64,000 nucleotides of DNA from assembly GCA_963422565.1 (NCBI GenBank), contig OY730228.1, positions 2,889,492 to 2,953,491 on the forward strand, given 5' to 3'. The position numbers and the translations under genes are program-made. Origin of the DNA: Alphaproteobacteria bacterium (GTDB lineage Bacteria; Pseudomonadota; Alphaproteobacteria; MPNO01). The notes beneath the pieces were generated by a model. That model did not search any database. It worked only from the letters and a program-made list of their open reading frames with translations, and was not told the DNA's origin. Shown here in pieces: positions 5,334 to 63,399 of the stretch; the stretch's first letter is position 1; each line of letters opens with the position of its first letter.

Positions 5334-6989
5334 TCAGGCGACCGAGCGCATCCCGCCGGCGCGCGCGGAGGCCTTGATCATATCGGCCGCCTTCTCGCCG
5401 ATCATGATGGTCGGCGCGTTGGTGTTGCCGCCGACGATCGTTGGCATCACCGAGGCGTCGACCACCCGTAATCCGTCTACCCCGCGGACCCGGAGTTCCG
5501 GATCGACGACCGAGGCGGGGTCGACCCCCATCCGACAGGTCCCGACCGGGTGGAAGATCGTCGCCGAGTTCCGGCGCACCCAGTCGGCGAGGTCTGCGCC
5601 GTCGCCTATCTCGGGACCCGGCAGCCGTTCGCGCCCGCGATGTGCGTCGAAGGCGGGAGCGCGGATCAGCCGGCGCGCCAACCGGAACCCGGCCGTCAAG
5701 GTCTCCAGGTCGCCTTCTCCGGAGAAGAAGGCGGGATCGATCGCGGGCGCCGCCTCCGGGTCCGGGCTGGCGGGGGTGACGCTCCCCCGGCTCTTCGGAC
5801 GCAGCAGCACCGCGGTGATGCTGAAGCCATGCCCCCAGCCGAACGGTCTACCGTTCTTGCCGCGCTGTCCGGGGACGAAGACGAGCTGGATGTCGGGGCG
5901 GGAGCATGTCGGGTCGGTGCGAACGAAGCCGCCGCTCTCGATCAGGTTGCTCGCCCAGAAGCCGCGCCGGGCGAGCGCGTACTCGGCGACGCTCCAGGCC
6001 ATGCGCGGAAGGCTGCGGAGTGACAGGCCGTAGGCGGCAGTGGTCGAGTTGTCGAAATCGCTCCGCGCGGCGGCGTGATCCTGCAGGTTGCGCCCGACCT
6101 CCGGCAGGTCGTGGACGACCGGAATCCCGAGCCGGGCGAGCGTCTCTCCGCTGCCGATGCCGGACAGCATCAGGAGATGCGGCGAGGCGATTGCGCCGGC
6201 CGACAGGATGATCTCGTGCCGTACGCGAATCTCCTCCGTGCCGGCGGGGCCGGTAAGCGCGATCCCGACGGCGCGCCGCTTCTCGACGATCACGCGGGTG
6301 ACCCGGCGGCCGGTCAGCACCTCGAGATTGCGGCGCCGGAGGGCCGGCGTCAGGAAGGCTGTCGCCGCCGAGCAGCGCCGCCCGTTCTTCTGGGTGACCT
6401 GGTGGACCCCGAATCCTTCCTGCTCGGCGCCGTTGAAGTCGCGGTTATGTCGGAATTGCAGGCTCTCGGCGGCGGCGACGAAGACATCGCCGAGCGGGTT
6501 GGGCCGGTCGATGAAGGTCACCGTCAGCGGTCCCCCCTGGCCGTGCAGGGCGTCGTCGCCGAAGCATTCGTTGCGCTCGGACTTGAGGAAGTAGGGCAAC
6601 ACCCCGTCCCAGCCCCAACCGGCGAGGCCGGTGGCGGCCCACTCCTCGTAATCGTCGCGATGGCCGCGGACATAGACCATGCCGTTGATCGCGCTCGAGC
6701 CGCCCAGCGCGCGCCCGCGCGGGATATAGACCGAAGCGCCGTCCATCCGGTGCTGGGGCACTGTCTCGAACCGCCAGTTCAGGTTCCGATGGCGCATCAG
6801 CGCGAACAGGGCGGCGGGGATGTGGATGAGCGGGTTGCGGTCACGCGGCCCGGCTTCGACCAGGCAGACGCGGCAGGCGGGATCCTCGCTCAGCCGTCCG
6901 GCGAGCACGCATCCCGCGGATCCGCCTCCGACGATGACGTAATCGACGCTGCCCCCGTCCTTGAACTCGGTATCCGGCATGGCTCGCAT
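5334..6989 (-). CDS. GMC-family FAD oxidoreductase (choline dehydrogenase-like)
   Basis: The sequence has DYVIVGGGSAGCVLAGRLSED...GGSSAINGMVYVRG...HPVGTCRMG...VDASVMPTIVGGNTNAPTIMIGEKAADMI, which are GMC oxidoreductase signatures. The start may be the second ATG, giving MPDTE... at 6980. Confidence 0.9.
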   Translation of the reverse strand: MRAMPDTEFKDGGSVDYVIVGGGSAGCVLAGRLSEDPACRVCLVEAGPRDRNPLIHIPAALFALMRHRNLNWRFETVPQHRMDGASVYIPRGRALGGSSAINGMVYVRGHRDDYEEWAATGLAGWGWDGVLPYFLKSERNECFGDDALHGQGGPLTVTFIDRPNPLGDVFVAAAESLQFRHNRDFNGAEQEGFGVHQVTQKNGRRCSAATAFLTPALRRRNLEVLTGRRVTRVIVEKRRAVGIALTGPAGTEEIRVRHEIILSAGAIASPHLLMLSGIGSGETLARLGIPVVHDLPEVGRNLQDHAAARSDFDNSTTAAYGLSLRSLPRMAWSVAEYALARRGFWASNLIESGGFVRTDPTCSRPDIQLVFVPGQRGKNGRPFGWGHGFSITAVLLRPKSRGSVTPASPDPEAAPAIDPAFFSGEGDLETLTAGFRLARRLIRAPAFDAHRGRERLPGPEIGDGADLADWVRRNSATIFHPVGTCRMGVDPASVVDPELRVRGVDGLRVVDASVMPTIVGGNTNAPTIMIGEKAADMIKASARAGGMRSVA

Positions 6990-7369
6990 CGCCTCGCGCT
7001 TCGTTCCCCCCGGGCGAGGCTATTCTACGCAGACGGGCGCCGGTCGGCAGCCGTTCCGCGGCGGCGCGCCGGACCGAGGCCAAGCGATCCGATAGGACCG
7101 CGCTGCTCGGTCATCGGCGCATCGATGCCGAAGCCGGTGAAGCGGCGCCACAATGCCTGCAGCGCGGGAACTGCCGTTTCCAGCCCGTGTGCGACGATCG
7201 CCGCGCGGACCGTGCGAACGGTCGTCGGATCGCGTCCCCGACCAACGTCGTCAACGCCTCGTCTGGCAGCGATGCGACCGATAGCGCGGACGCGCGCCGG
7301 GCCGGTGTTCCGCCGCTATCGGCGGCTCCGAAGAGATCGATCTGTCGGGCCACGGCCGCGACCCGACGC

Positions 7370-8158
7370 CTATCTGCCCTGGAACCGCGGTGGGCGCTTC
7401 TCCATGAAAGCCGTCCGGCCCTCGACATAGTCGGCGCTGCGGTAGCAGTCGTCGATCAACACGCGGCACGCCTCGAGATCGCGGTCGGCGTCGGGCTTGA
7501 GGACCTCGCCGATGATCAGCTTCATTCCCTTGACGGTCAGCGGCGCGTTCGCGGCCACCATATCCGCATAGCTGGCGACGAAGTCGTGGAGCGTCCCGTC
7601 GGGAACGACCTTCTGGACCAGGCCGATCCGCAGCGCTTCGTCGGCGTCGAGCCGGCGGGCCGAGAAGGTGATGTCCCGCGCGGCGCCGGGCCCTACGGTG
7701 TCGACCAGCCGCTTGATCCCGGCGAATCCGTAACCGAGCCCGAGCCGCGCCGCCGGCAGGCCGAATTGGGACTTCGCCGAGCAGAACCGGAGATCACAGC
7801 AGACCGCGAGCGCGAGCCCGCCGCCTATGCAGTAGCCGTCGATTTCGGCGATGGTTGGCTTTGGCAGCGTCTCGAGTCTCTCGTTGGCGGCGGCGACGCG
7901 GTCGTTGTAACGGCGGATCGCCTCCGCGCTGTCGCGCTCCTCCCCGAAGCGCGAGATGTCCGCCCCCGAGACGAAGGATTTGCCGCCGGCGCCCGACAGG
8001 ATGACGACGCGGATCTCCGGGTCGCGGGCGAAATCGGCCAGGATCGTCTCCGCCGCCTCCCACATCGCCAGTGAGACCGCGTTGCGCCGTTCCGGGTTGT
8101 TGAAGATCATCTGCCCGATCGGGCCGGTCTTGCGCGAGAGCATCTTGTCGGTCGTCAT
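7370..8158 (-). CDS. enoyl-CoA hydratase/isomerase family protein
   Basis: The ORF (262 aa) carries IRVVILSGAGGKSFVSGADISRF...GYCIGGGLALAVCCDLRFCSAKSQFGLPAARLGLGYG..., the crotonase fold signature. Confidence 0.9.
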   Translation of the reverse strand: MTTDKMLSRKTGPIGQMIFNNPERRNAVSLAMWEAAETILADFARDPEIRVVILSGAGGKSFVSGADISRFGEERDSAEAIRRYNDRVAAANERLETLPKPTIAEIDGYCIGGGLALAVCCDLRFCSAKSQFGLPAARLGLGYGFAGIKRLVDTVGPGAARDITFSARRLDADEALRIGLVQKVVPDGTLHDFVASYADMVAANAPLTVKGMKLIIGEVLKPDADRDLEACRVLIDDCYRSADYVEGRTAFMEKRPPRFQGR

Positions 8159-35160: not shown

Positions 35161-36213
35161 ATGCTCGTCCAACAGACCGGTGTCACCTGCCACGACCGCC
35201 GGCGAGCCACCCCGGGCTACACCCTGTTCTCTCGGACGCAGACTCGGGACGTCTATCTGATCGACATGGAGGGCGATGTCGTCCATCGCTGGGAGACCGG
35301 CGGCGGCTCGACCCATTTTATCTGTCTTCTCCCCAACGGCAATCTATGGGTCTGCGAACGCGCGGACGATGCACCCTCGATCATGGCCGGCCCCGGCGGG
35401 CGCATCCGGGAATATGGCTGGGACGGCAGAATCGTCTGGGAGCATCTCGACCGGATGCAGCATCACGACGCCCGGAGGCTGGCGAACGGCGGTGCGGTCT
35501 ATATCGCCTGGGAGCGGCTCGACGCGGACCAGGCGAGACAGGTCCGCGGCGGCGTACCCGGCACCGAACCCGCCGACGGAATGCTCGGCGAGGTGGTCCG
35601 CGAGGTCGACGCCCGTGGCGACCCGGTCTGGGAGTGGCGGCTCGCCGAGTGCGGGCTGGATCGCTATCCGATCCACCGCAACGCGCCGCGGGCGATCTAC
35701 GGCCACGCCAACGCGATCGACGCACTGCCCGACGGGAACTATCTGGTCAGCTTCAAGACGCTCAACCTGCTCGCCATCATCGACCGGCGGACCGGCAGGG
35801 TGACATGGGAGTTCCAGGACGACGCGCTCGGCGGGCAGCATGATTCCCAGATGATCGACAACGGCAACATCCTGGTCTTCGCCAACGGCGCCTACGCCTC
35901 CGACATCCAGTTCTCGACCGTCTGGGAGATCGCGCCGGCGACCAGGGAGGTCGTCTGGCAGTACAAGGCGAAGCGAAACGCCTGCTCCTTCTACAGCCCG
36001 CATATCAGCGGCTGCCAGCGTCTTCCGAGCGGGAACACCTTGATCTGCGAGGGAGCCAAGGGCGCCGTCTTCGAAGTGACGCCCGATCGCGACGTGGTGT
36101 GGGAATATGTCTGCCCGTTCTGGGGCGCCCACCCGCATCTGGGCGAGATCAACTTCCTGTTCCGCGCCAGGCGCTATGCCGCTGACTCGCCCGAAATCCG
36201 CAACCGGGTCTGA
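35161..36213 (+). CDS. arylsulfotransferase (ASST)-family beta-propeller protein
   Basis: The 350-aa ORF has repeated YLIDMEGDVVHRWE / GRIVWEH / GDPVWEW / GRVTWEF / REVVWQY / RDVVWEY blades, typical of the ASST propeller family. Confidence 0.7.
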   Translation: MLVQQTGVTCHDRRRATPGYTLFSRTQTRDVYLIDMEGDVVHRWETGGGSTHFICLLPNGNLWVCERADDAPSIMAGPGGRIREYGWDGRIVWEHLDRMQHHDARRLANGGAVYIAWERLDADQARQVRGGVPGTEPADGMLGEVVREVDARGDPVWEWRLAECGLDRYPIHRNAPRAIYGHANAIDALPDGNYLVSFKTLNLLAIIDRRTGRVTWEFQDDALGGQHDSQMIDNGNILVFANGAYASDIQFSTVWEIAPATREVVWQYKAKRNACSFYSPHISGCQRLPSGNTLICEGAKGAVFEVTPDRDVVWEYVCPFWGAHPHLGEINFLFRARRYAADSPEIRNRV

Positions 36214-36249
36214 CACCCCGCCCCGCCATCTCGACCGGGACGACCGAAC

Positions 36250-36906
36250 ATGCCCTATGGCCTCGACCTCTATCACGACCAGTTTACGAGGAACGGCGCC
36301 GTCGCGCGGCCCCTGCCGCCTGCCAACCGGATACTCTATGTCCGCCATGGCGAGGTGCGGATCGACGGCACGGCGCACGGACCCGATTCGGCGCTTTTCG
36401 CAAGCGGGAATGTGGAGATGTCCGGGATCGCCGATTGGTCCCAGGTCTGGCGCTGGGAGATCGCGCCACCCAACCACGACCCGGTGCTGCTCGACGGGGA
36501 CGGCCTGTTGTCGATGCGCCGCATGTCGCGGGTGATCACCAGCCTTGATATGCCGCCCGGCAGCAGTTGGCTGTTCCGCCTCGACCGGATCACCTCGCCG
36601 CCGGGGCGCGTCGCGGACCGGCATCGGCATTCCGGCCCCGGCATCCGTTGCCTGCTGGAAGGAACGTTCAACGTTCAGCAGAATGCGGAATCGATACGGG
36701 CATGTGCGCCGGGCGACCCGTGGTGGGAGACCGGCGAGGACATCGTCGTCGCCTGGGGATCGCGGACGATGCATGCGCGGTTCCTGCGCGGCATGGTGCT
36801 GCCGGCCGAATGGGTGGGCCGGGTGACCGGCGAGTGGCTGTCCGGCGACAGGACGGCCCGGCGTGGCGACTGGCGTCTCCTCGTCGACCGGATCGTCACC
36901 GTCTGA
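36250..36906 (+). CDS. cupin-domain protein
   Basis: The 218-aa ORF carries HRHSGPGIRCLLEGTFNV, a cupin motif-1-like sequence. Confidence 0.6.
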   Translation: MPYGLDLYHDQFTRNGAVARPLPPANRILYVRHGEVRIDGTAHGPDSALFASGNVEMSGIADWSQVWRWEIAPPNHDPVLLDGDGLLSMRRMSRVITSLDMPPGSSWLFRLDRITSPPGRVADRHRHSGPGIRCLLEGTFNVQQNAESIRACAPGDPWWETGEDIVVAWGSRTMHARFLRGMVLPAEWVGRVTGEWLSGDRTARRGDWRLLVDRIVTV

Positions 36907-36946
36907 TCTCGGGCGGACGGGGTCGGACAGGAAAGGACGTGGCAGG

Positions 36947-38596
36947 ATGACGGAAACGGCGAACAGGCTCCCCACGCTTACCACCGGCGAGGCGATCGCC
37001 AGATCGCTCGTCCTACACGGGGTCGACACGGTGTTCGGGATCCCGGGCGCGCACATGTACCATTTCAACGACGCGCTGGCGCGGGAGCGCGACCGGATCG
37101 CCTTCATCACCACGCGCCACGAGCAGGGCGCGGCGCATATGGCGTTCGGCTACGCCAAGTCGACCGGTCGCGCGGGCGTCTACACGGTGGTGCCCGGGCC
37201 GGGCGTGCTCAACTCGGCGGCGGCGCTCAGCATCGCCTACGGCGCCAACACCCCGGTTCTGTGCGTGACCGGGAACATCATGGCGGATCTGATCGGGCGC
37301 GGCCGCGGCCAGCTCCACGAACTGCCGGATCAGCTCGCCACGCTGCGCGGCTTCACGGGTTGGGCGCAGCGCATCGACCATCCGACGGCGGCGCCCCGCC
37401 TTGTCGCCGAGGCCTTCCGCAGTATGTTCGCTGGCCGCATCAGGCCGGCGGCGATCGAGGCGCCCTGGGACGTCTTCGGTCTCGCCGCCCAGGTCGATCT
37501 CGCGGTCGACCGCAGCACCCCCCCGCCGCCGCCGCCCGATACCGACGCGGTCGCCGCCGCCGCGCGGCTGATCCGCGAGGCGAAGAACCCGTTGATCGTC
37601 GTCGGCGCCGGCGCTCAGCATGCCGCGGAGGAAGTCACCGCGCTGGCCAGGCTCGTTCAGGCCCCGGCGACCAGCTTCCGCAGCGGCAAGGGCGTCGTCT
37701 CCAACGACGACCCCTACGGCCTTCTATCCGCGGCCGCCTACGAGTACTGGCCCAAATGCGATCTCCTGATCGGCATCGGCAGCCGACTCGAGCTGATCCA
37801 TTTCCGCTGGCGCTGGTCGCCCGAGGGCATGAAGACCGTCCGTATCGATATCGACCCCACCGAGTTCGTCCGCATCAGGCCGGATGTCGGCATCGTGACC
37901 GATGCGAAGCTCGGAACCTCGGCCCTGATCGATGCGCTCGAGAAGAGCCTCGACAAGCGCCGATCCAGGGCCGAGGAGTTTCTCGGCTACAGCGCGATCG
38001 CGACGGAGAAGATTTCGGTCGTGCAGCCCCAGATGGCCTTTCTCGATGCGCTTCGGTCCGCCCTGCCCCCGGACGGCTTTTTCGTCGAGGAGATCACCCA
38101 GATCGGCTTCGCCGCCCGTTTTGGCTTCCCCGTCTACGGCCCCCGGCAATACGTGACCTGCGGCTATCAGGACAGTCTGGGCTTCGGGTTCCAAACCGGC
38201 CTCGGGGTCAAGATCGCCAACCCCGGCCGCTGCGTGGTCTCGATCTCCGGCGACGGCGGCTTCATGTTCGGGGTCCAGGAACTGGCGACTGCCGTCCAGC
38301 ACGGCATCAATCTGGTGGCGGTCGTGTTCAACAATGCGAGCTTCGGCAATGTCCGGCGCGATCAGATGACTGTTTTCGACGGGCGGCTGCTTGGCGCCGA
38401 ACTCGTCAACCCGGACTTTGCCGCCATGGCCGAGAGCTTCGGTGCCAAGGGCGTGCGGGCATCGACGCCGGAGGCATTGCGTGCGGCGATCGAGGACGGG
38501 TTCAAGGAGGACGGACCGGTCCTGATCGAGGTGCCGATCGAGCGGGGAAGCGAGGCCTCTCCCTGGCCGTTCACGCACCCCCTGACCGGGCGGTGA
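36947..38596 (+). CDS. thiamine-pyrophosphate-dependent enzyme (acetolactate synthase-like family)
   Basis: ATG at 36947 follows a GGAAAGGA Shine-Dalgarno-like stretch and gives MTETANRLPTLTTGEAIARSLVLHGVDTVFGIPGAHMYHFNDALAR... The TPP-binding GDGGF...NN motif follows: ISGDGGFMFGVQELATAVQHGINLVAVVFNNASFG. Confidence 0.88.
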   Translation: MTETANRLPTLTTGEAIARSLVLHGVDTVFGIPGAHMYHFNDALARERDRIAFITTRHEQGAAHMAFGYAKSTGRAGVYTVVPGPGVLNSAAALSIAYGANTPVLCVTGNIMADLIGRGRGQLHELPDQLATLRGFTGWAQRIDHPTAAPRLVAEAFRSMFAGRIRPAAIEAPWDVFGLAAQVDLAVDRSTPPPPPPDTDAVAAAARLIREAKNPLIVVGAGAQHAAEEVTALARLVQAPATSFRSGKGVVSNDDPYGLLSAAAYEYWPKCDLLIGIGSRLELIHFRWRWSPEGMKTVRIDIDPTEFVRIRPDVGIVTDAKLGTSALIDALEKSLDKRRSRAEEFLGYSAIATEKISVVQPQMAFLDALRSALPPDGFFVEEITQIGFAARFGFPVYGPRQYVTCGYQDSLGFGFQTGLGVKIANPGRCVVSISGDGGFMFGVQELATAVQHGINLVAVVFNNASFGNVRRDQMTVFDGRLLGAELVNPDFAAMAESFGAKGVRASTPEALRAAIEDGFKEDGPVLIEVPIERGSEASPWPFTHPLTGR

Positions 38597-38796
38597 CCGG
38601 GAGGGGGGAGAGATGACCGGCGCGGGGCGCGCCGACTACCGCGCCTTCGTAGCCGGACCGGACCCGGATCGCCATGGGCGCATCGTCCGGGCGCGAACCC
38701 GCCCTCGCCGCCCGCGCGGGGGGTGGCGCGGGACACGCTGACCGCGTCGGCGGCTGCGGCCGGGCCGTTCGATCTGGCCCGGTGTCAACGCTCGAG

Positions 38797-38841
38797 GGCG
38801 TCGTGTCTGCGCGCCGCGAAGCGTCCCGCAGACACGACGCC
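38797..38841. repeat. perfect 15-bp inverted repeat (hairpin) with a 15-nt loop
   Basis: GGCGTCGTGTCTGCG at 38797-38811 pairs exactly with CGCAGACACGACGCC at 38827-38841. No U-tract follows. Confidence 0.6.
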
Positions 38842-39087
38842 AGGGCAGCCCCTCGTGTAAGCTGGCGTGCAGGCTTCGTACCCGCATGGGGGTCCTCCTT
38901 CGGCTGCTTGTTCACACCGACAGCCTCGGAGACCCCCAACCCCGATTCAAGGCCCGCGTCTCACATCCGTTCTTCGTGGGCCGAAGTCGATCGCAAGACA
39001 GAAGAGATCGATCCAGGTTCTTGATTCCTTCCCGCTGCGGAGATTATCGAAGAGCTATCGGCAACAGTCGAACCAGGAGGAAAAGAG

Positions 39088-39168
39088 ATGGAAATGTCCC
39101 GTTTGGCCACACTCTCGGCCTTGGCTTTCTGCCAGTCCTTGCCGTATCCGGTTTGGGCAGGCGAGTAA
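39088..39168 (+). CDS. 26-aa hydrophobic peptide ORF with a strong Shine-Dalgarno site (hypothetical)
   Basis: AGGAGG sits 8 nt upstream of the ATG. The peptide is MEMSRLATLSALAFCQSLPYPVWAGE. It lies at the start of a low-GC block. Confidence 0.3.
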   Translation: MEMSRLATLSALAFCQSLPYPVWAGE

Positions 39169-39221
39169 GTTTTATTTTGCAGCGTTAAGCATCCTAACGT
39201 GCCGAAGTTAAGAGACAGAAG

Positions 39222-39425
39222 GTGCTAGTGATTACGTCGGATGGGGAGAAAGTTATTGAAAATGAAGGAGAAGATTTAATTGGCTCTATGATAGATAGCA
39301 TTAGCCATTTATTTGTCTCGACGATCAACGAGATGACCGATGATGGCTTTGAACCTGTGGGTGGCGTTTCTATTGCACTTGGCTATTGTGGCCCGACAGT
39401 ATGTCAGGTCTTGTATGACGACTAG
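39222..39425 (+). CDS. 67-aa acidic, Cys-containing small protein (hypothetical)
   Basis: A GTG start follows GAAGG. The protein is (M)LVITSDGEKVIENEGEDLIGSMIDSISHLFVSTINEMTDDGFEPVGGVSIALGYCGPTVCQVLYDD. Its local GC is about 35-50% against a host background above 65%. Confidence 0.35.
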   Translation: MLVITSDGEKVIENEGEDLIGSMIDSISHLFVSTINEMTDDGFEPVGGVSIALGYCGPTVCQVLYDD

Positions 39426-39457
39426 TCATCTGGAGCTGAAGTAAGTGTCATTATAGG

Positions 39458-39754
39458 ATGTCCATCGGGATTGGATTTGGGAGGTTTCCCCCGATGGCTC
39501 GTGGCGTTGGCCGTCCGCTGGCGGCCTACGAGGCCAAGGTAGCGGCGCGCGCCGGGCGCAAGGGCCGGGCCAAGGGCAAGCGGCCGAAGCCGCCTGGGGG
39601 GACGCCGCGCGGGGACGAGCAGAGCAACCTGAGCGACCCTGACAGCCGGCTGATGCGCAAGAGCAGGAGGCACGAGTTCCGCCCGAGCGGGGCCGGGACA
39701 GCGGTGAAGGAAACCGAGCCCAAAGTCCGACAGACTGATAGGGCATGTTCTTGA
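39458..39754 (+). mobile_element. IS1182/IS5-superfamily transposase N-terminal fragment (relic)
   Basis: The fragment reads ...RPLAAYEAKVAARAGRKGRAKGKRPKPPGGTPRGDEQSNLSDPDSRLMRKSRRHEF..., the conserved (T/S)DPDSR(L/I)M(K/R) region of IS1182-family transposases. It is only about 98 aa and decays before the DDE domain. Confidence 0.65.
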
Positions 39755-39777
39755 TTTATTCCGAAAGATCCGGCAGT

Positions 39778-40866
39778 ATGCCCCCCATGGAGGCTCCTCT
39801 GCCGGAATGTCCTCGCAAGGGGCGGGGCGCGGTCAGCAACCGCGCCGGACGCTTCGAGCCGCACCAGCGCCATGCGGTCGACGACGGATGGCTGCCGACG
39901 GACGAAGATCCACCGCCGCTCCGCACCACCGTCACGGCCGACCGCGCGCGCAGCATCCTCACGCGCAACTCCTCGCCAGACCTGCCGTTCGACCGGTCGA
40001 TCAACCCCTATCGCGGCTGCGAGCATGGCTGCGTCTATTGCTTCGCCCGGCCGACCCATGCCTTTCTCGGCCTGTCTCCGGGGCTCGATTTCGAGTCCAG
40101 ACTTTTCTACAAGCCGGATGCGCCCCGGCTTCTCGAGGAGGCGCTGCGCAAGCCCGACTACCGCTGCGCGCCGATCGCGATGGGCACCAACACGGATCCC
40201 TACCAGCCGATCGAGAGAGAGCTCGGTCTGACCCGGGCGGTCCTGGAGGTGCTGGACCGCTGCAACCACCCGGTCGGCATTGTCACCAAATCGACGCTGG
40301 TCCTGCGCGATGCCGATATTTTGGGGCGAATGGCCGCGCGTGGGCTCGCGCGGGTGTGCGTGTCGGTGACGACCCTCGATCGGCGGCTCGCGCGCAGGCT
40401 GGAGCCGCGCGCCCCGACCCCGCCGCGGCGGCTCGCTGCGCTGCGCGGCCTGAGCGACGCCGGCATCCCGACCGGCGTGATGGTCGCGCCGATCGTTCCG
40501 GGGCTGACGGACATGGAGATCGAGGAGATCCTGGAGGCGGCGCGCGCGGCCGGGGCCGGGACCGCCGGACATGTCCTGCTCCGGCTGCCGCTCGAGATCG
40601 CCGACCTCTTCGTCGAATGGCTCGAGGCCCATTATCCGGCGCGGGCGGCGCGTGTGCTGAGCCTGATCCGGCAGACACGCGACGGCGGCCTCTATCAGAC
40701 GGGCTTCGGCCTGCGTATGCGCGGATCTGGCCCCTATGCCGAGATGCTGAAGACCCGCTTCGCCCGCGCCTGCCGGCGCCTCGGCTATGCGCCGCGAGGC
40801 CCGGCGCTCGACGGCTCTTCCTTCGTGCCGCCCGTTCGCCAGGGGGACCAGCTCCCGCTTTTGTGA
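39778..40866 (+). CDS. radical SAM protein, PA0069 family (SplB-like)
   Basis: The sequence has KGRGAVSNRAGRFEPH...NPYRGCEHGCVYCFARPTHAFLG with the CxxxCxxC cluster. The exact start is uncertain; an ATG at 39745 is also in frame. Confidence 0.85.
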   Translation: MPPMEAPLPECPRKGRGAVSNRAGRFEPHQRHAVDDGWLPTDEDPPPLRTTVTADRARSILTRNSSPDLPFDRSINPYRGCEHGCVYCFARPTHAFLGLSPGLDFESRLFYKPDAPRLLEEALRKPDYRCAPIAMGTNTDPYQPIERELGLTRAVLEVLDRCNHPVGIVTKSTLVLRDADILGRMAARGLARVCVSVTTLDRRLARRLEPRAPTPPRRLAALRGLSDAGIPTGVMVAPIVPGLTDMEIEEILEAARAAGAGTAGHVLLRLPLEIADLFVEWLEAHYPARAARVLSLIRQTRDGGLYQTGFGLRMRGSGPYAEMLKTRFARACRRLGYAPRGPALDGSSFVPPVRQGDQLPLL

Positions 40867-40878
40867 TCGCCGCGCGTC

Positions 40879-41565
40879 ATGGCGCGCTATGTTGGCTCCC
40901 GGATGGAGCAGCGCGCCCGACAACGACCCGACGACGCGATCGAACGCGGCCTTCGCGGCCTCGTCGCCGGAGTCGACGAAGCGGGTCGCGGACCGTTGGC
41001 GGGACCGGTGGTCGCCGCCGCCGCCGTCTTGCCGCTGGACGGGCTGCCCCCCGCCCTCGCCGCGGAGATCAGGGACTCCAAACAGCTCGCTCCCGCGCGG
41101 CGCCGGGCGCTGTACCCGGCCATTCGCCGGCATGCGGCGATCGGCGTCGGCGCGGCCAGCGTCGCCGAGATCGAGACCGTCAACATCCTCGCCGCGACCA
41201 TGCGGGCGATGGCTCGCGCCGTCGCGGCGCTGCCGCTGCGGCCCTCGGTCGCCCTGGTCGACGGCAACCGCGCCCCCGACCTGCCCTGCCGGGTCGAGAC
41301 CCTCGTCGGCGGCGACGCCAGGTCGCTGTCGATCGCCGCGGCGTCGATCGTCGCCAAGGTCACCCGCGATCGGATCATGGCCCGCCTCGCGGTCCGCTAT
41401 CCCGGCTTCGGCTGGGAGCGCAATTCCGGCTACGGGACCGCAGCCCACAGATCCGCGCTGCGGAGCCTCGGGATCACCCGCCACCATCGCCGGACCTTTG
41501 CCCCCGTCCGGGCGTGTCTGACCGCGGTCGATAGCCGATCTTCCCCGCCGCCCCGTAAGCGCTGA
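40879..41565 (+). CDS. rnhB: ribonuclease HII
   Basis: The sequence has [21 protein letters not shown]...IRDSKQL...VDGNRAPDL...[15 protein letters not shown], the RNase HII motifs. Confidence 0.93.
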
Positions 41566-55591: not shown

Positions 55592-55846
55592 CTACCGCAT
55601 CCTGTGCAAGCGCGAACGCGCTGAATGGGCAAAGGGGGCGACCGGCAGCAGTCGCCACGGGCAGCCCGAGCGCAAGATGTACAGAACCGCGTTCACTACG
55701 TCCCGCAAGTCTGTCGTCCGCGGTCGGCCCAGAGCTTGCGCCGCCGGCATATGGGGTTCGATCGACTTCCACTCATCGTCGGTAAGATCGCTCGCATAGC
55801 GCAACTTCTCGCGGTCATACTTCGGTCGAGTGATTTCGGTCCACAT
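55592..55846 (-). mobile_element. IS5-family (IS427-group) transposase orfA fragment
   Basis: The fragment reads [68 protein letters not shown]..., the canonical orfA N-terminus of IS427-group elements. The tail is diverged and no intact orfB follows. Confidence 0.75.
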
Positions 55847-56236
55847 GTTGTGCCTCCGTGCTCGTCCAACACAAGCAAGTGAAGCACAACATACTGAGAT
55901 CACTCAATTCATTTCGGGCCAGACACTCAGTCATTAGCTATCCCGACAGGAATCGAAGCTCCATGAAGGGAGTGTACGGCCGGAACCTCGCAAAATGGGA
56001 GAATTGTCGTCTGATGATCTGTCAGGCCAACCTCAGCTTGACGAAGCGGCACCTCGCGGGTCCGCGAGAAGCGCACCGTCATGCAGTCTTCGACCTCCTC
56101 GATCTCGGGGCGAGGCAGCCTCGTGGAGGCACGACCGTTCCGCCATGGTGACCGTTCCACGGCTCCCGTCAAATCGCCTCTTGGTTTGCGGTACCGTATG
56201 AATTATCTCACCTCTGGTTTACTTGGAGGCCTCGCG

Positions 56237-56512
56237 ATGCCGGCAACTGAACGGCTCACCACCACGATCTTGACCAAGGGCCAGGTGGTTCTGCCCAGAG
56301 CGATCCGTCGAACGCTGCGCTGGGAGTCGGGAATGCGGCTGGCGGTGGAGAACACGCCCGAGGGCGTGCTGCTGAAACCCGCGCGCGTGTTTGCCGAGAC
56401 CCGGCCCGAGGATGTATTCGGCTGCCTTGCCTGCGATGGCCCACCCAGATTCATGGCGGAGATGGAGGCGGGGGTCCTGGCGGAGGCGAAGCGGCGCCAT
56501 GCGGGCGGTTGA
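56237..56512 (+). CDS. vapB: AbrB/MazE/SpoVT-family antitoxin (VapB-like)
   Basis: GGAGG lies 8 nt upstream. The protein reads MPATERLTTTILTKGQVVLPRAIRRTLRWESGMRLAVENTPEGVLLKPA..., a swapped-hairpin DNA-binding domain. It overlaps the downstream PIN gene by 14 nt. Confidence 0.8.
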   Translation: MPATERLTTTILTKGQVVLPRAIRRTLRWESGMRLAVENTPEGVLLKPARVFAETRPEDVFGCLACDGPPRFMAEMEAGVLAEAKRRHAGG

Positions 56513-56884
56513 TACCAATGTCGTTGTTCGATACCTGACCGGCGACGAGCCGGTGCAGGCCGCCAAGGCCAGAGCCGTGATCGAGGCCGGGCATGTCTTC
56601 GTCGGCACCACGGTTCTGCTGGAAAGCGAACGGGTGCTGCGTAGCGTCTACGGTTTCGGCGGAATCGAGGTTGCGGCGGCGCTTCGCGCCTTCGCAGGAC
56701 TGCCCGGCGTCTTGGTGGAGAGCCCTGCCGTACTCGCCGACGCACTCGACTGGCCGACGAGGGCATGGACTTCGCCGACGCACTCCATCTCGGCGCTGCC
56801 GGACGTCGCGAGGCCATGCTGACCTTCGACCGCCGGTTTATCGAGACTGCCAAGGATCTTCCTGTCGGGGTGACCGCAGCTTGA
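56499..56884 (+). CDS. vapC: PIN-domain toxin VapC, interrupted by a 1-nt frameshift near 56752-56758
   Basis: Frame A gives MRAVDTNVVVRYLTGDEPVQAAKARAVIEAGHVFVGTTVLLESERVLRSVYGF...VLADALDW. The protein continues in another frame as ...DEGMDFADALHLGAAGRREAMLTFDRRFIETAKDLPVGVTAA*. The junction is gactgg|ccgac and is restored by adding one G to make TGG GCC GAC. Confidence 0.7.
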
Positions 56885-60457: not shown

Positions 60458-61489
60458 TCAATGCCGGCGCGGGAGCTTCATATAGTCGTAACGGTCGCCC
60501 GCCTCGACCCGCAGCGAAAGCACATCGTCGTCGCGCAGCAGAGTGAAGCGCAGCTTGGCGCCCGGCGGGCCGGCTGCCCATAATGTCCTGTAGTAATGGC
60601 CCAGCCCGCTCACGGCGACGCCTTCGAGCGACAGCAGGACATCGCCCGGCTGGAGCCCGGCCTGATCGGCGGGCGCGTTGGGGGCGACCCCGGTGACGAT
60701 CAGCCGCCGTTCGGACTCGCCGACATACATCCCGAGCCATGGGCGCGGCGGCCGGGCCGCCCGCCCGGTCCGGATCATCGCCGGCCCGATCGGCTCCAGC
60801 AGATCGATCGGGACGAACATGTTGCCGGGCGCCGGCGCGTCGCCTTCGATGGCGTGCTCGATATAGAGCGAGCCGATCCCGACCAGCTCGCCCCTGCGAT
60901 CGATCAGCGCCGCCCCGCCCCAATAGGGATGCATCGGCGCCGTGTAGACCGCCCGATCGAGCATGTACTCCCAGGAGCCGGCGAATTCGTGGATCGAGAC
61001 GACATTGGCGGCGATCGCATGATCCTCGCCGCCGCAGGAGGCGACGATGACGGGATCGGATTCGGCGAGCCGCGCCGAACGGCCGATCGGCACGGGCGCG
61101 ACCCCGAGCGGCGCGCGCGCCCGCACCATGCCGAAACCGGTCTCGTGATCGTAGGCAACGGGGTCGGCCTCGACCTTCCTGCCGTCGCGGCCGAGGAGGG
61201 TCACGGCGCTCGCCTCGCTCATCAGATAGCCGATCGTCAGCACGAGGCCGTCCGCATCGATCGCGACCCCGTTGCCCTCGCGTTCGGTGCCGAGGATAGA
61301 GGCGGTGAAGGCCGTTCGCGGCACCTCGGCATGGAGCCGGAAGACGGCGTCCAGCACGCGGTCGAGATCGTAGCCGATGGCCGCGCGGTCGGGCCGCGGC
61401 GCGCGCAGCAGGGCGGGGTGGACGCCACCCGGCACCCCCTGCGGCCGATACCCGTTGGCGTGCTCGATTCCCGCCATTGACCCCGCCAT
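60458..61489 (-). CDS. trypsin-like serine protease with C-terminal PDZ domain (S1C/DegP-like)
   Basis: The likely start is the internal ATG at 61489 (MAGSMAGIEHANGYRP...). The sequence has GTEREGNGVAIDADGLVLTIGY...GGAALIDRRGELVGI and a PDZ-like C-terminus, GLQPGDVLLSLEGVAV. Confidence 0.75.
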   Translation of the reverse strand: MAGSMAGIEHANGYRPQGVPGGVHPALLRAPRPDRAAIGYDLDRVLDAVFRLHAEVPRTAFTASILGTEREGNGVAIDADGLVLTIGYLMSEASAVTLLGRDGRKVEADPVAYDHETGFGMVRARAPLGVAPVPIGRSARLAESDPVIVASCGGEDHAIAANVVSIHEFAGSWEYMLDRAVYTAPMHPYWGGAALIDRRGELVGIGSLYIEHAIEGDAPAPGNMFVPIDLLEPIGPAMIRTGRAARPPRPWLGMYVGESERRLIVTGVAPNAPADQAGLQPGDVLLSLEGVAVSGLGHYYRTLWAAGPPGAKLRFTLLRDDDVLSLRVEAGDRYDYMKLPRRH

Positions 61490-61696: not shown

Positions 61697-62347
61697 TCAC
61701 TGCGAGAGACCGCTGACGAAACCGCAAAGTTTCTCGAATGCCGGAGACATAAAATTCCAGATGTTCTGCTGCGCGGCTTCCCCGACTCGTGCCATCGGAT
61801 CCGGCATCGCGGCGAGATAGGCATGCGCGAAACTCTTGTCCATATTGGCCGACATTATCGCGCCTTCTGCTGTGAGGCATTCCATATACTTCTCAACGCA
61901 TCGAGCGATAACTGTCCCCTCGAAAGACTGTCGGCACAGGGTTTCCAGACTGCCGAACTCATCGCGATCCGGCACGATGAACACGCCAACGGAGGGAACC
62001 GAACCCGAGAATAGTCCGGGGAAGTCGAGCGGTTCGTATCCAGACTGCAAGAGATGGCTTCTGATGCTTTGAAATGCACCGTCCGGGTTGTTGTCGGCGT
62101 CTCGGACGACACCGATGGATTGGAGCGTGGGCCGTGTTCGTACTGCGGCGCGTATCGCTTTCAGTCTTCCGGGAAACCGGTCTTTTCCCCCGGCATCGAT
62201 CACCTGAATATCCGACACGCCGCCAAGGCAATACCGGATCAGGGCACGGAACAGATTGACCTCGTCCCGCCCCTCGACGAGCAAGAGTCGGTCGGAATCG
62301 ATGCTCAGCTTCTCCTTCCGGCCTTCCTCCGGATTCTCTTGCGGCAT
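61697..62347 (-). CDS. DUF4435/TOPRIM-like protein (AbiLii/AriB-like putative nuclease partner of an ABC-type ATPase)
   Basis: The ATG at 62347 overlaps the upstream ATPase stop. The protein reads MPQENPEEGRKEKLSIDSDRLLLVEGRDEVNLFRALI...SIGVVRDADNNPDGAFQSI, with a conserved Glu and a DxD as in TOPRIM/OLD-type domains. GC is lower than the flanks. Confidence 0.6.
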   Translation of the reverse strand: MPQENPEEGRKEKLSIDSDRLLLVEGRDEVNLFRALIRYCLGGVSDIQVIDAGGKDRFPGRLKAIRAAVRTRPTLQSIGVVRDADNNPDGAFQSIRSHLLQSGYEPLDFPGLFSGSVPSVGVFIVPDRDEFGSLETLCRQSFEGTVIARCVEKYMECLTAEGAIMSANMDKSFAHAYLAAMPDPMARVGEAAQQNIWNFMSPAFEKLCGFVSGLSQ

Positions 62348-63399
62348 TCATCTGACCTCGAGGTCAAGTTCGCGGGCTCCCGCCAGCGCCTCTCCAGTGA
62401 ATGTCGCGGCTTCCGTTCGTCCCGTATTTTCGTTACGGAAAAGCTTGTGGATGGCGAGATCCGCGGGGGCGTCGGCGAAGGCGTCTATCGCCGCGTCGAT
62501 GAATTCGCCGCTATGGGTCGTTGCGATGAATTGCACGTTCCATTGCTTCATCCACTGGCGCACCTTGCTCCATATGTCGCGTTGCGCGGAACAATGGATA
62601 CCGTTTTCCAGCTCGTCCACCAGCAGAACGGATTCTCGACAGGCCGAGAAACTGAGCAGCAATCGCACCAGTCTCACGGCACCGCCTCCGAGATCGTGAA
62701 GCGGCCTGGGCTTTCCGCCCGCCACTGTGACCGAGAGATAGGACTCCCCGCTACCGTCGGTCAGAATCTCCACATCGTCGCTTCCATCGACGACCAGGTT
62801 GAGGGCCTTCACCAGCTCCTTCTTGCGACCGTCTCTGACCAGGCTCGAATATCTCTGAAAATATTCGTCGGGGGTCTCCTGCTAAAATCTCGTGCTTTCT
62901 ATGATGCAGTTCCGATGTTCAGATGGCGGTTTTTGATATGGGAGGAGCACCGTCCCCGAGGGTGTAACCTGGATCGCATTTACCTCGTCTCCTACGGGTT
63001 TCCGTCGAGATAGGTGCGGATTAATCCCATCACCGGAGATAGTTTCTCTGTATTTCCTTGCAGAGATCGGACGATAGCTCCTTCGGAGGAAACATCGTTG
63101 ATCTTCTCGAAAATGAATCCGACCTCCTGTTTCGTTCCACATTCTTTTCCGCGAAGGGTCAACGCGCCGCCCGTCAGCCGGGATATTGGATCCAGGGGCG
63201 GAACGCGGGAGCGCTGCACGTTCGCGTTCCACAACAGACTTGGATTGTATCGCCCGACGAACAGCCACATCGCCTCGATCAGAGCCGTCTTGCCGACGCC
63301 GTTCGCGCCGGTGATCAGATTGGCCCTCGTCAGAAGGGGAAGATCGAGGCCGTCGATGCCGCGGTAGCGAACGGCCGTGAATCTCTCTAGTCGAACCAT
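62348..63399 (-). pseudogene. ABC-type ATPase (AAA_21/AAA_15-like, AbiLi/AriA/OLD-ATPase-like), disrupted by a frameshift near 62993-62999 and an in-frame TAG at 62882-62884
   Basis: The N-terminal frame gives MVRLERFTAVRYRGIDGLDLPLLTRANLITGANGVGKTALIEAMWLF (Walker A) and stops at 62992. The +1 frame continues ...PVGDEVNAIQVTPSGTVLLPYQKPPSEHRNCIIESTRF and then hits TAG. The same frame reads on as QETPDEYFQRYSSLVRDGRKKELVKALNLVVDG...LLVDELENGIHCSAQ (Walker B / D-loop)...FIATTHSGEF (H-loop) to 62348. Confidence 0.65.

Follow-up and report, generated by a model that had tools for sequence, protein, structure and literature searches.

In bacteria, the decay of passenger genes into pseudogenes and IS relics is a general pattern of genome reduction and junk accumulation. 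Our literature search on the passenger genes of IS1182 returned only generic papers. The locus described here lies in a stretch of 64,000 nucleotides from an alphaproteobacterium, which is referred to as the window throughout. It shares with IS-associated passenger-gene decay a low-GC cargo beside a transposase remnant, a synteny breakpoint, an occurrence in several genomic contexts, and independent inactivation by deletion, point mutation and IS insertion. It differs from the described cases in that neither an intact flanking IS pair nor terminal repeats can be defined, and in that the cargo proteins belong to unannotated families.

Relative to the IS1182 family itself, homologues of the transposase remnant match the family model at positions 157–358, and the related sequence L082 keeps the C-terminal VEPVFG.IK region of the family (DDE_Tnp_1_6). 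The window, in contrast, keeps only ∼75 codons of mid-protein and late sequence, without the N-terminal domain, the DDE core, the C-terminus or the left end. Given the fact that these domains and the left end are missing, the element is unable to transpose. The partner gene of the cargo encodes a 276-aa lipoprotein that can be likened to YcdA and YjhA of Bacillus (PDB 4r4g and 3cfu) and to ApaG-like β-sandwich domains. The two sides differ in that sequence identity is 12–14% and there is no Pfam, NCBIfam or PDB sequence match, and the window retains 17 codons of the gene. A 26-aa ORF of the block resembles the type I toxin peptides, as it is short, hydrophobic and preceded by a strong ribosome-binding site. 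Unlike them, it is what remains of the signal peptide of a longer gene, the scan for RNA families gave no antisense RNA for it, and it is not conserved as a standalone gene.

As judged from the comparison of sequences, the block is very probably a horizontally acquired, low-GC, two-gene passenger cassette in a late state of decay beside a dead IS1182-family element. The same comparison points to ordinary mobile-DNA decay at the locus rather than to a concealed system for a toxin or peptide.

Composition and setting of the low-GC block

An earlier note on this DNA had described a sharp drop in composition between the gene of a TPP-dependent enzyme and a radical-SAM gene, and the GC scan of the 64 kb bore this out. 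The GC minimum of the window was found at 38971–39489 (∼47% versus 68.5%), and the five lowest-GC 400-nt windows of the scan all fell within the block (0.468 against a mean of 0.685, sd 0.046). The 200-nt windows across 38900–39500 gave GC values of 0.44–0.51, as compared with 0.65–0.78 for the flanking genes, and the individual 60-nt lines of 39001–39480 gave 0.33–0.55. The block lies at a synteny breakpoint immediately 5′ of the conserved radical-SAM-rnhB core. The coordinates of the features are collected in Table 1.

The 26-, 67-, 98-, 112- and 276-aa proteins were searched against Pfam, NCBIfam and PADLOC, and the only result was a weak IS1182 match. An Rfam scan of 37500–41000 at E ≤ 1 gave no relevant match, with one chance hit elsewhere. 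No blastn match to the block was present among the PLSDB plasmids, and tblastn detected no second copy of the IS, the lipoprotein gene or the small gene within the 64-kb window.

Table 1. Features of the block and its flanks (window coordinates).
Feature	Position	Strand	Evidence or remarks
TPP-dependent enzyme gene, left flank	36863–38596		Three TPP_enzyme Pfam domains
Helix-turn-helix gene remnant, mobile-element type, GC-rich	38597–38890	−	Broken by frame changes and deletions; three-frame translations compared for the window, L081 and L082
Deletion junction	38970/38971		blastn against L081 and L082, and junction sequences
Last 17 codons and stop of the lipoprotein gene (WAEVDRKTEEIDPGS and stop)	38971–39024	+	tblastn of P0032 residues 260–276, 94% identity
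AGGAGG ribosome-binding site of the small gene	39075–39080	+	Identical in the window, L081 and L082
Pseudogene of a ∼112-aa protein with predicted Sec signal peptide	39088–39425	+	Contains both small ORFs; colinear with the intact orthologues
Nonsense codon TAA, codon 27	39166–39168	+	Window-specific; TAC (Tyr) in L081 and L082
1-nt deletion	39204–39212	+	Window-specific; GAAGTTAAG versus GAAGTTTA(A/G)G in L081 and L082
Low-GC spacer between the small gene and the IS relic	39426–39489		100% identical to L081
IS1182-family transposase remnant, 72% GC	39490–39721	+	Homologues P0004–P0029, NF033551 mapping, tblastn
Junction of the further 384-bp deletion and last few tens of nt of the IS 3′ non-coding end	39711–39745	+	
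Radical-SAM gene, right flank			PA0069 family; NF033668, E 2.7e-153, 510 bits

The two small ORFs as halves of one gene

The two small ORFs of the block were recovered on the plus strand with the translations quoted in the earlier note, the 26-aa ORF at 39088–39168 and the 67-aa ORF, which has a GTG start, at 39222–39425. Both had been described as preceded by a Shine-Dalgarno sequence, which holds for the first ORF only. Its AGGAGG is present, with a 7-nt spacer to the ATG at 39088. The second ORF has only a weak GAAGG, which in the intact homologues is simply part of the reading frame (P-K-V-L-V).

The comparison with the close relatives showed that the two ORFs belong to a single gene. Intact orthologues are found at 5594–5932 of L081 (P0030, 112 aa) and at 7001–7336 of L082 (P0031, 111 aa), and in both the reading frame opens at the very ATG of the 26-aa ORF and ends at the stop codon that closes the 67-aa ORF. 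The 26-aa ORF corresponds to the signal-peptide part and the 67-aa ORF to the C-terminal part of the intact gene, and tblastn of the intact protein covered both window halves in two frames. The proposals that the first ORF encodes a type-I-toxin-like or leader peptide, and the second a precursor or immunity protein, therefore fail, since the ORFs are colinear parts of one protein that is predicted to be exported.

Two lesions specific to the window separate the halves, more specifically the nonsense codon and the single-nucleotide deletion listed in Table 1. The lost T falls in GAAGTTTAAG, which contains a short T run (TT/TTT), and its loss places the 67-aa ORF in another frame. The ORF of 112 codons is restored by two reversions, that of TAA to TAC and that of the one missing T. 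Apart from this T, every indel in the gene spans a multiple of 3 nt; among them are a 6-nt deletion, which leaves the hydrophobic core of the window signal peptide 2 residues shorter than that of L081 and L082, and, relative to both intact copies, a 6-nt insertion close to the C-terminus. The charged n-region of the window signal peptide also carries a K2E change (MEMSR versus MKKSR).

The N-terminus of the intact proteins (P0030 and P0031) reads MKKSR / LAALSVLALAFCQSL / PYPVWA↓GE. By inspection of its n-, h- and c-regions and of the −3/−1 rules, the intact small protein is a predicted Sec-exported substrate of signal peptidase I. Its mature region contains two invariant Cys. The AlphaFold model of the small protein was too poor for a fold search (pLDDT 60).

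Neither the 26-aa nor the 67-aa sequence was found as a separate protein in databases of 5.8 billion clusters and 1.8 billion representatives, and exact-sequence look-ups of the small ORFs gave no match in the collection searched. Protein patterns and a conserved DNA pattern revealed no extra alleles of the small gene in the JGI metagenomes and IMG/VR. A sensitive HMMER search proposed giant MBG-repeat proteins as homologues, at ∼30 bits per repeat and with the alignment running through the signal peptide; this candidate kinship was rejected on both of these grounds and because Pfam sees no MBG domain in the query. No link was found to a giant protein downstream of the L084 homologue.

No plus-strand promoter-like (sigma-70-like) site was detected upstream of 39088; in an alphaproteobacterium, neither this nor the lack of an Rfam family counts as strong evidence. 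One minus-strand promoter-like hexamer pair is located at 39071–39043, and a novel RNA is possible. It is possible that the 26-aa fragment is translated from the intact ribosome-binding site, and it is likely that no functional product arises from the block today.

The lipoprotein partner gene and the probable 869-bp deletion

At the deletion junction, L081 and L082 carry ∼869 extra bp (L081 4608–5476), which comprise the upstream or promoter region of the cassette and codons 1 to ∼259 of the 276-aa lipoprotein gene. The window is therefore left without 94% of this gene, and the retained codons encode the conserved C-terminal motif of the family, PW.E..R.TEEI.PG. As the complete gene is present at three other loci and only its 3′ end in the window, a deletion in the window lineage is the parsimonious explanation, and we infer a loss in the window rather than a gain in the relatives.

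The 276-aa protein has ∼50 homologues and no Pfam, NCBIfam or PADLOC assignment. In 33 homologues, Cys37 is invariant and is preceded by L..G, a lipobox that lies in the part of the gene deleted in the window. This invariant Cys after a signal sequence identifies the partner as a predicted bacterial lipoprotein, which would be exported. Its structure model reached a pLDDT of 87, the best folds were the Bacillus lipoproteins YcdA and YjhA, and on this model the protein is a β-sandwich lipoprotein. A profile search of the PDB with this family gave no match.

A run of G that varies in length is located directly 3′ of TTGACA, upstream of the lipoprotein gene and in the region deleted in the window. 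It has 11 G in L081 (4622–4650), 6 in L082 (∼6034–6052), 8 in L083 (∼5908–5935) and 6 in L091 (∼5905–5930), and it could be either a phase-variable promoter spacer or a long-read homopolymer error.

The IS1182-family transposase relic

The 98-aa ORF at 39458–39754 contains the SDPDSRLMRKS motif. Pfam gave no match for this ORF, and the NCBIfam model of the IS1182 family (NF033551) matched it at 14.9 bits (E 0.009) over positions 228–265 only, the curated cutoff being 270 bits. Its homologues match NF033551 with E values of 1e-17 to 1e-23 and carry PF01609, and the longer of them (P0004, P0014 and P0017) reach 63–82 bits over positions 157–358 of 488. The family identity suggested earlier is thus confirmed by way of the homologues, and by these matches the window piece is best described as derived from the family and not a functional member. 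It had also been called an N-terminal fragment; it is instead a mid-protein piece (profile ∼228–265 of 488) with a short later piece.

The remnant joins a mid-protein linker (AYEAKVAAR...SNLSDPDSRLMRKS.RHE) directly to the later piece (FRPSGAGTAVKE), with the junction near 39665–39680. In agreement, tblastn of P0004 gave two joined segments in the window, which correspond to residues 2–58 and 132–147. The residues between them (∼59–131), bearing DDE_Tnp_1, are missing from the window, L081 and L082, and this common deletion, which lies between two RRHE/DF motifs, took away ∼80 codons with the beginning of the DDE domain among them. The further deletion of 384 bp, which lies between short similar repeats, is shared by the window and L081 but not by L082, where 7636–8019 keeps the transposase C-terminus (VEPVFGVIKAVLGF...) and the 3′ end of the element. 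As a result of this deletion, the 98-aa ORF runs at its end into IS DNA that was formerly non-coding.

The left end of the IS is missing. A 19-nt direct repeat (39014–39032 and 39744–39762, 16/19 identical) brackets the small gene and the IS relic, and is probably due to chance, as ∼0.4–1 such pairs are expected. Its core GTTCTTGATT, repeated directly at 39017 and 39747, is of a size expected by chance. The core was considered as a target-site duplication and rejected as unsupported, since its first copy belongs to the cassette. This first copy overlaps the stop codon of the lipoprotein gene and is present too in L083, which is without IS1182.

Relatives, mobility and alternative states of decay

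The genomes compared belong to very close relatives or to co-resident organisms of a single metagenome assembly (ERZ21742408), and the polarity of the changes rests on parsimony. L081 was found by a protein search with the 98-aa ORF, which returned a 93%-identical copy on a 4.6-Mb contig. L081 and L082 share the same gene order (TPP gene, 276-aa gene, 111/112-aa gene, IS1182 relic and radical-SAM gene) and are ∼97.6% identical to the window across the TPP gene. Against the window, L081 is 94.6% identical over 36209–38970 and 91.5% over 38971–39824.

The cassette was also identified at an unrelated locus of a 6.3-Mb genome, between genes for a molybdopterin dehydrogenase and an AAA_14 ATPase (L083 and L091). 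The copy at this locus includes, besides the lipoprotein and small genes, the TTGACA/poly-G region upstream of them, and is accompanied by neither the IS1182 relic nor a radical-SAM gene. In L083, the lipoprotein gene is intact (91% DNA identity) and only the last ∼30 codons of the small gene remain. In L091, a 99%-identical sister of L083, a clean deletion has taken out the lipoprotein ORF, and an IS4-type insertion interrupts the small gene. The only short copy found elsewhere, the 34-aa P0088, is a product of an IS insertion. The window, L081, L082, L083 and L091 provide five snapshots of how a cassette falls apart along different routes in a single microbial community.

The more remote homologues of the lipoprotein gene are located among IS256, IS21, IS1182 and IS4/5 transposases and integrases. 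This presents an unannotated lipoprotein family of ∼50 members that resides habitually among IS elements.

In a wider comparison, the radical-SAM loci of 80 species-level relatives (59–70% protein identity) were inspected. The TPP gene, the cassette or IS1182 was not observed within 6 kb upstream of the radical-SAM gene in any of the 80. The radical-SAM-rnhB pair is kept in 59 of these relatives, with mutY following it in 13. The GC minimum, the absence from all 80 distant relatives and the second, unrelated locus support the proposal of the earlier note that the block is a horizontally acquired cargo remnant beside an IS relic.

Divergence of the intact small gene

The intact small genes of L081 and L082 differ at 64 of 330 aligned nucleotides in addition to indels (80.6% identity), with a dS of 0.17, a dN of 0.25 and a dN/dS of ∼1.5. 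Between the same two sequences, the TPP gene is 99.6% identical (dS 0.005), the lipoprotein gene differs at 5 of 831 nucleotides (dS 0.010), and the immediate flanks of the small gene are 97–100% identical. These differences are concentrated in three patches of loop size that also contain in-frame indels, and two of the patches fall on loops to which the weak structure model gives low confidence. The allele of the window is mosaic in that it agrees with L081 in two patches and with L082 in the third. The trees also conflict, given that the IS relic groups the window with L081 and the TPP gene groups L081 with L082, which indicates recombination among co-resident strains.

It is conceivable, though unlikely, that the small gene is a genuine hypervariable locus, and with three alleles the patches would fit diversifying selection as well as short-tract allele exchange. 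If this were so, an orphan exported protein would travel with an IS-hopping lipoprotein, for example as a strain-recognition, phage-receptor or antagonism-related pair. The small gene was also considered as the target of a diversity-generating retroelement. This candidate was rejected, as no second copy of any part of the block occurs in the 64-kb window and the patch differences are wholesale replacements with indels and are not A-specific.

Alternative readings and proposed history

The small gene might be intact in the organism, with the TAA and the frameshift introduced as sequencing or assembly errors into one functional 112-aa secreted protein. The position of the frameshift in a TT/TTT run, the remaining indels in multiples of 3 and the perfectly conserved ribosome-binding site are what such a gene would present, yet two independent lesions are needed, one of them a substitution, and the signal peptide also has K2E and has lost two hydrophobic residues. 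The 869-bp loss of the upstream gene and upstream region admits no base-calling error, and the independent inactivations in L083 and L091 point to a small gene that is readily lost, which leaves an intact gene very unlikely. The 1-nt deletion in the T run could be an assembly error, and an error is less likely for the TAA substitution; even if both lesions were such errors, the locus would by its sequence be one gene and not two. It is extremely improbable that the block holds two separate small genes that both function, the first for a type-I-toxin-like or leader peptide of 26 aa and the second for a precursor or immunity protein of 67 aa. The strong ribosome-binding site and the hydrophobic peptide would suit the first and the weak GAAGG before the GTG would suit the second, but both pieces are colinear with one ORF in L081 and L082, neither fragment exists as a separate protein in the searched databases, and the hydrophobic stretch ends in a signal-peptidase-type site (VWA↓G). 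Nor was an RNA family (E ≤ 1, 37500–41000) or a plus-strand promoter-like site detected.

The adjacency to a radical-SAM gene and the Cys in the C-terminal tail could suggest that the small ORF encodes a RiPP precursor matured by the adjoining enzyme, a reading that we regard as almost certainly wrong. The enzyme is of the PA0069 family (NF033668, 510 bits), with no peptide-maturase model among its matches, and belongs to a widely conserved radical-SAM-rnhB(-mutY) block, at none of whose 80 radical-SAM loci the small gene was found. The small gene is instead associated with the lipoprotein gene, and in L083 and L091 no radical-SAM gene accompanies it; the small gene carries a predicted Sec signal peptide, and the IS relic lies between it and the enzyme gene. 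The decayed two-gene cassette remains the preferred reading. It also offers a caution, as Shine-Dalgarno-preceded short ORFs in low-GC islands beside IS debris can mimic hidden toxins or precursors. Here, a comparison with a close relative settles at once that the ORFs are fragments of one broken gene.

According to this preferred reading, the original cassette would have comprised an upstream region, the gene of the 276-aa β-sandwich lipoprotein and the gene of the ∼112-aa secreted protein. The last shared ancestor of the window, L081 and L082 would already have had IS1182 and the cassette 5′ of its radical-SAM gene. The IS would then have lost its 5′ half and its catalytic (DDE) core, and later another 384 bp. 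In the window lineage, an illegitimate deletion of ∼869 bp would have taken the upstream region and left only 17 codons of the lipoprotein gene in place. The orphaned small gene would finally have gained the nonsense codon, the frameshift and the changes that weaken its signal peptide, leaving the 26-aa and 67-aa fragments. We infer the order of these events from the individual states, which were observed directly.

Rearrangements around the block and other relics in the window

In L081, homology to the radical-SAM gene stops after ∼15 codons, and from 6330 onward an island with HsdM_N, AbiEii and DUF6088 genes is found instead. In L082 (8095–10981), the radical-SAM gene is split into ORFs of 193 and 127 aa and is then cut by an IS21 element. 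On the sequences compared, the radical-SAM locus appears as a rearrangement hotspot in the window, L081 and L082.

On the left side, the homology of the window to its relatives starts at a 218-aa gene 5′ of the TPP gene (window 36209, L081 1820, L082 3403). To the left of 36209, the three differ: an arylsulfotransferase-like gene (35161–36213) is found in the window, IS66-type genes in L082 and a transposase of the IS5 type in L081. It is possible that the TPP segment, too, belongs to a larger region that is mobile or has been rearranged.

The helix-turn-helix remnant between the TPP gene and the deletion junction has a conserved AGGAGG and ATG start at 38887 on the minus strand and contains …AADAVSVSRAT…. 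The alignment of the window to L081 has ∼130 gap columns over this remnant, and the gene is more complete in L081 and L082 (…GVSRATLYRWETR…). The frame-corrected sequence of L081 matched HTH_3 at E 6e-5 and other helix-turn-helix models too. A near-perfect hairpin with 21-nt arms, a 3-nt loop and no T-tail is located at 38797–38841, in a ∼51-nt stretch that is absent from L081. It was considered as a repeated REP/MITE-like element and rejected, as it occurs in a single copy in the window.

A second low-GC patch at 61697–63399 on the minus strand encodes a DUF3226/OLD-TOPRIM-like protein and an AAA_21 ATPase. The ATPase is split into two ORFs (62348–62812 and 62992–63399), and a tRNA-Pro adjoins at 61058–61135. 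The best PADLOC matches of the patch were the candidate defence pair PDC-M38A/B and AbiLi, and it may represent a decayed islet of defence genes beside a tRNA gene. A further low-GC patch at 55592–55903 (minus strand) holds the N-terminal DUF4096 fragment of an IS5-family transposase, and it is adjoined at 56081–56822 (plus strand) by a MazE/AbrB-PIN toxin-antitoxin-like gene pair.
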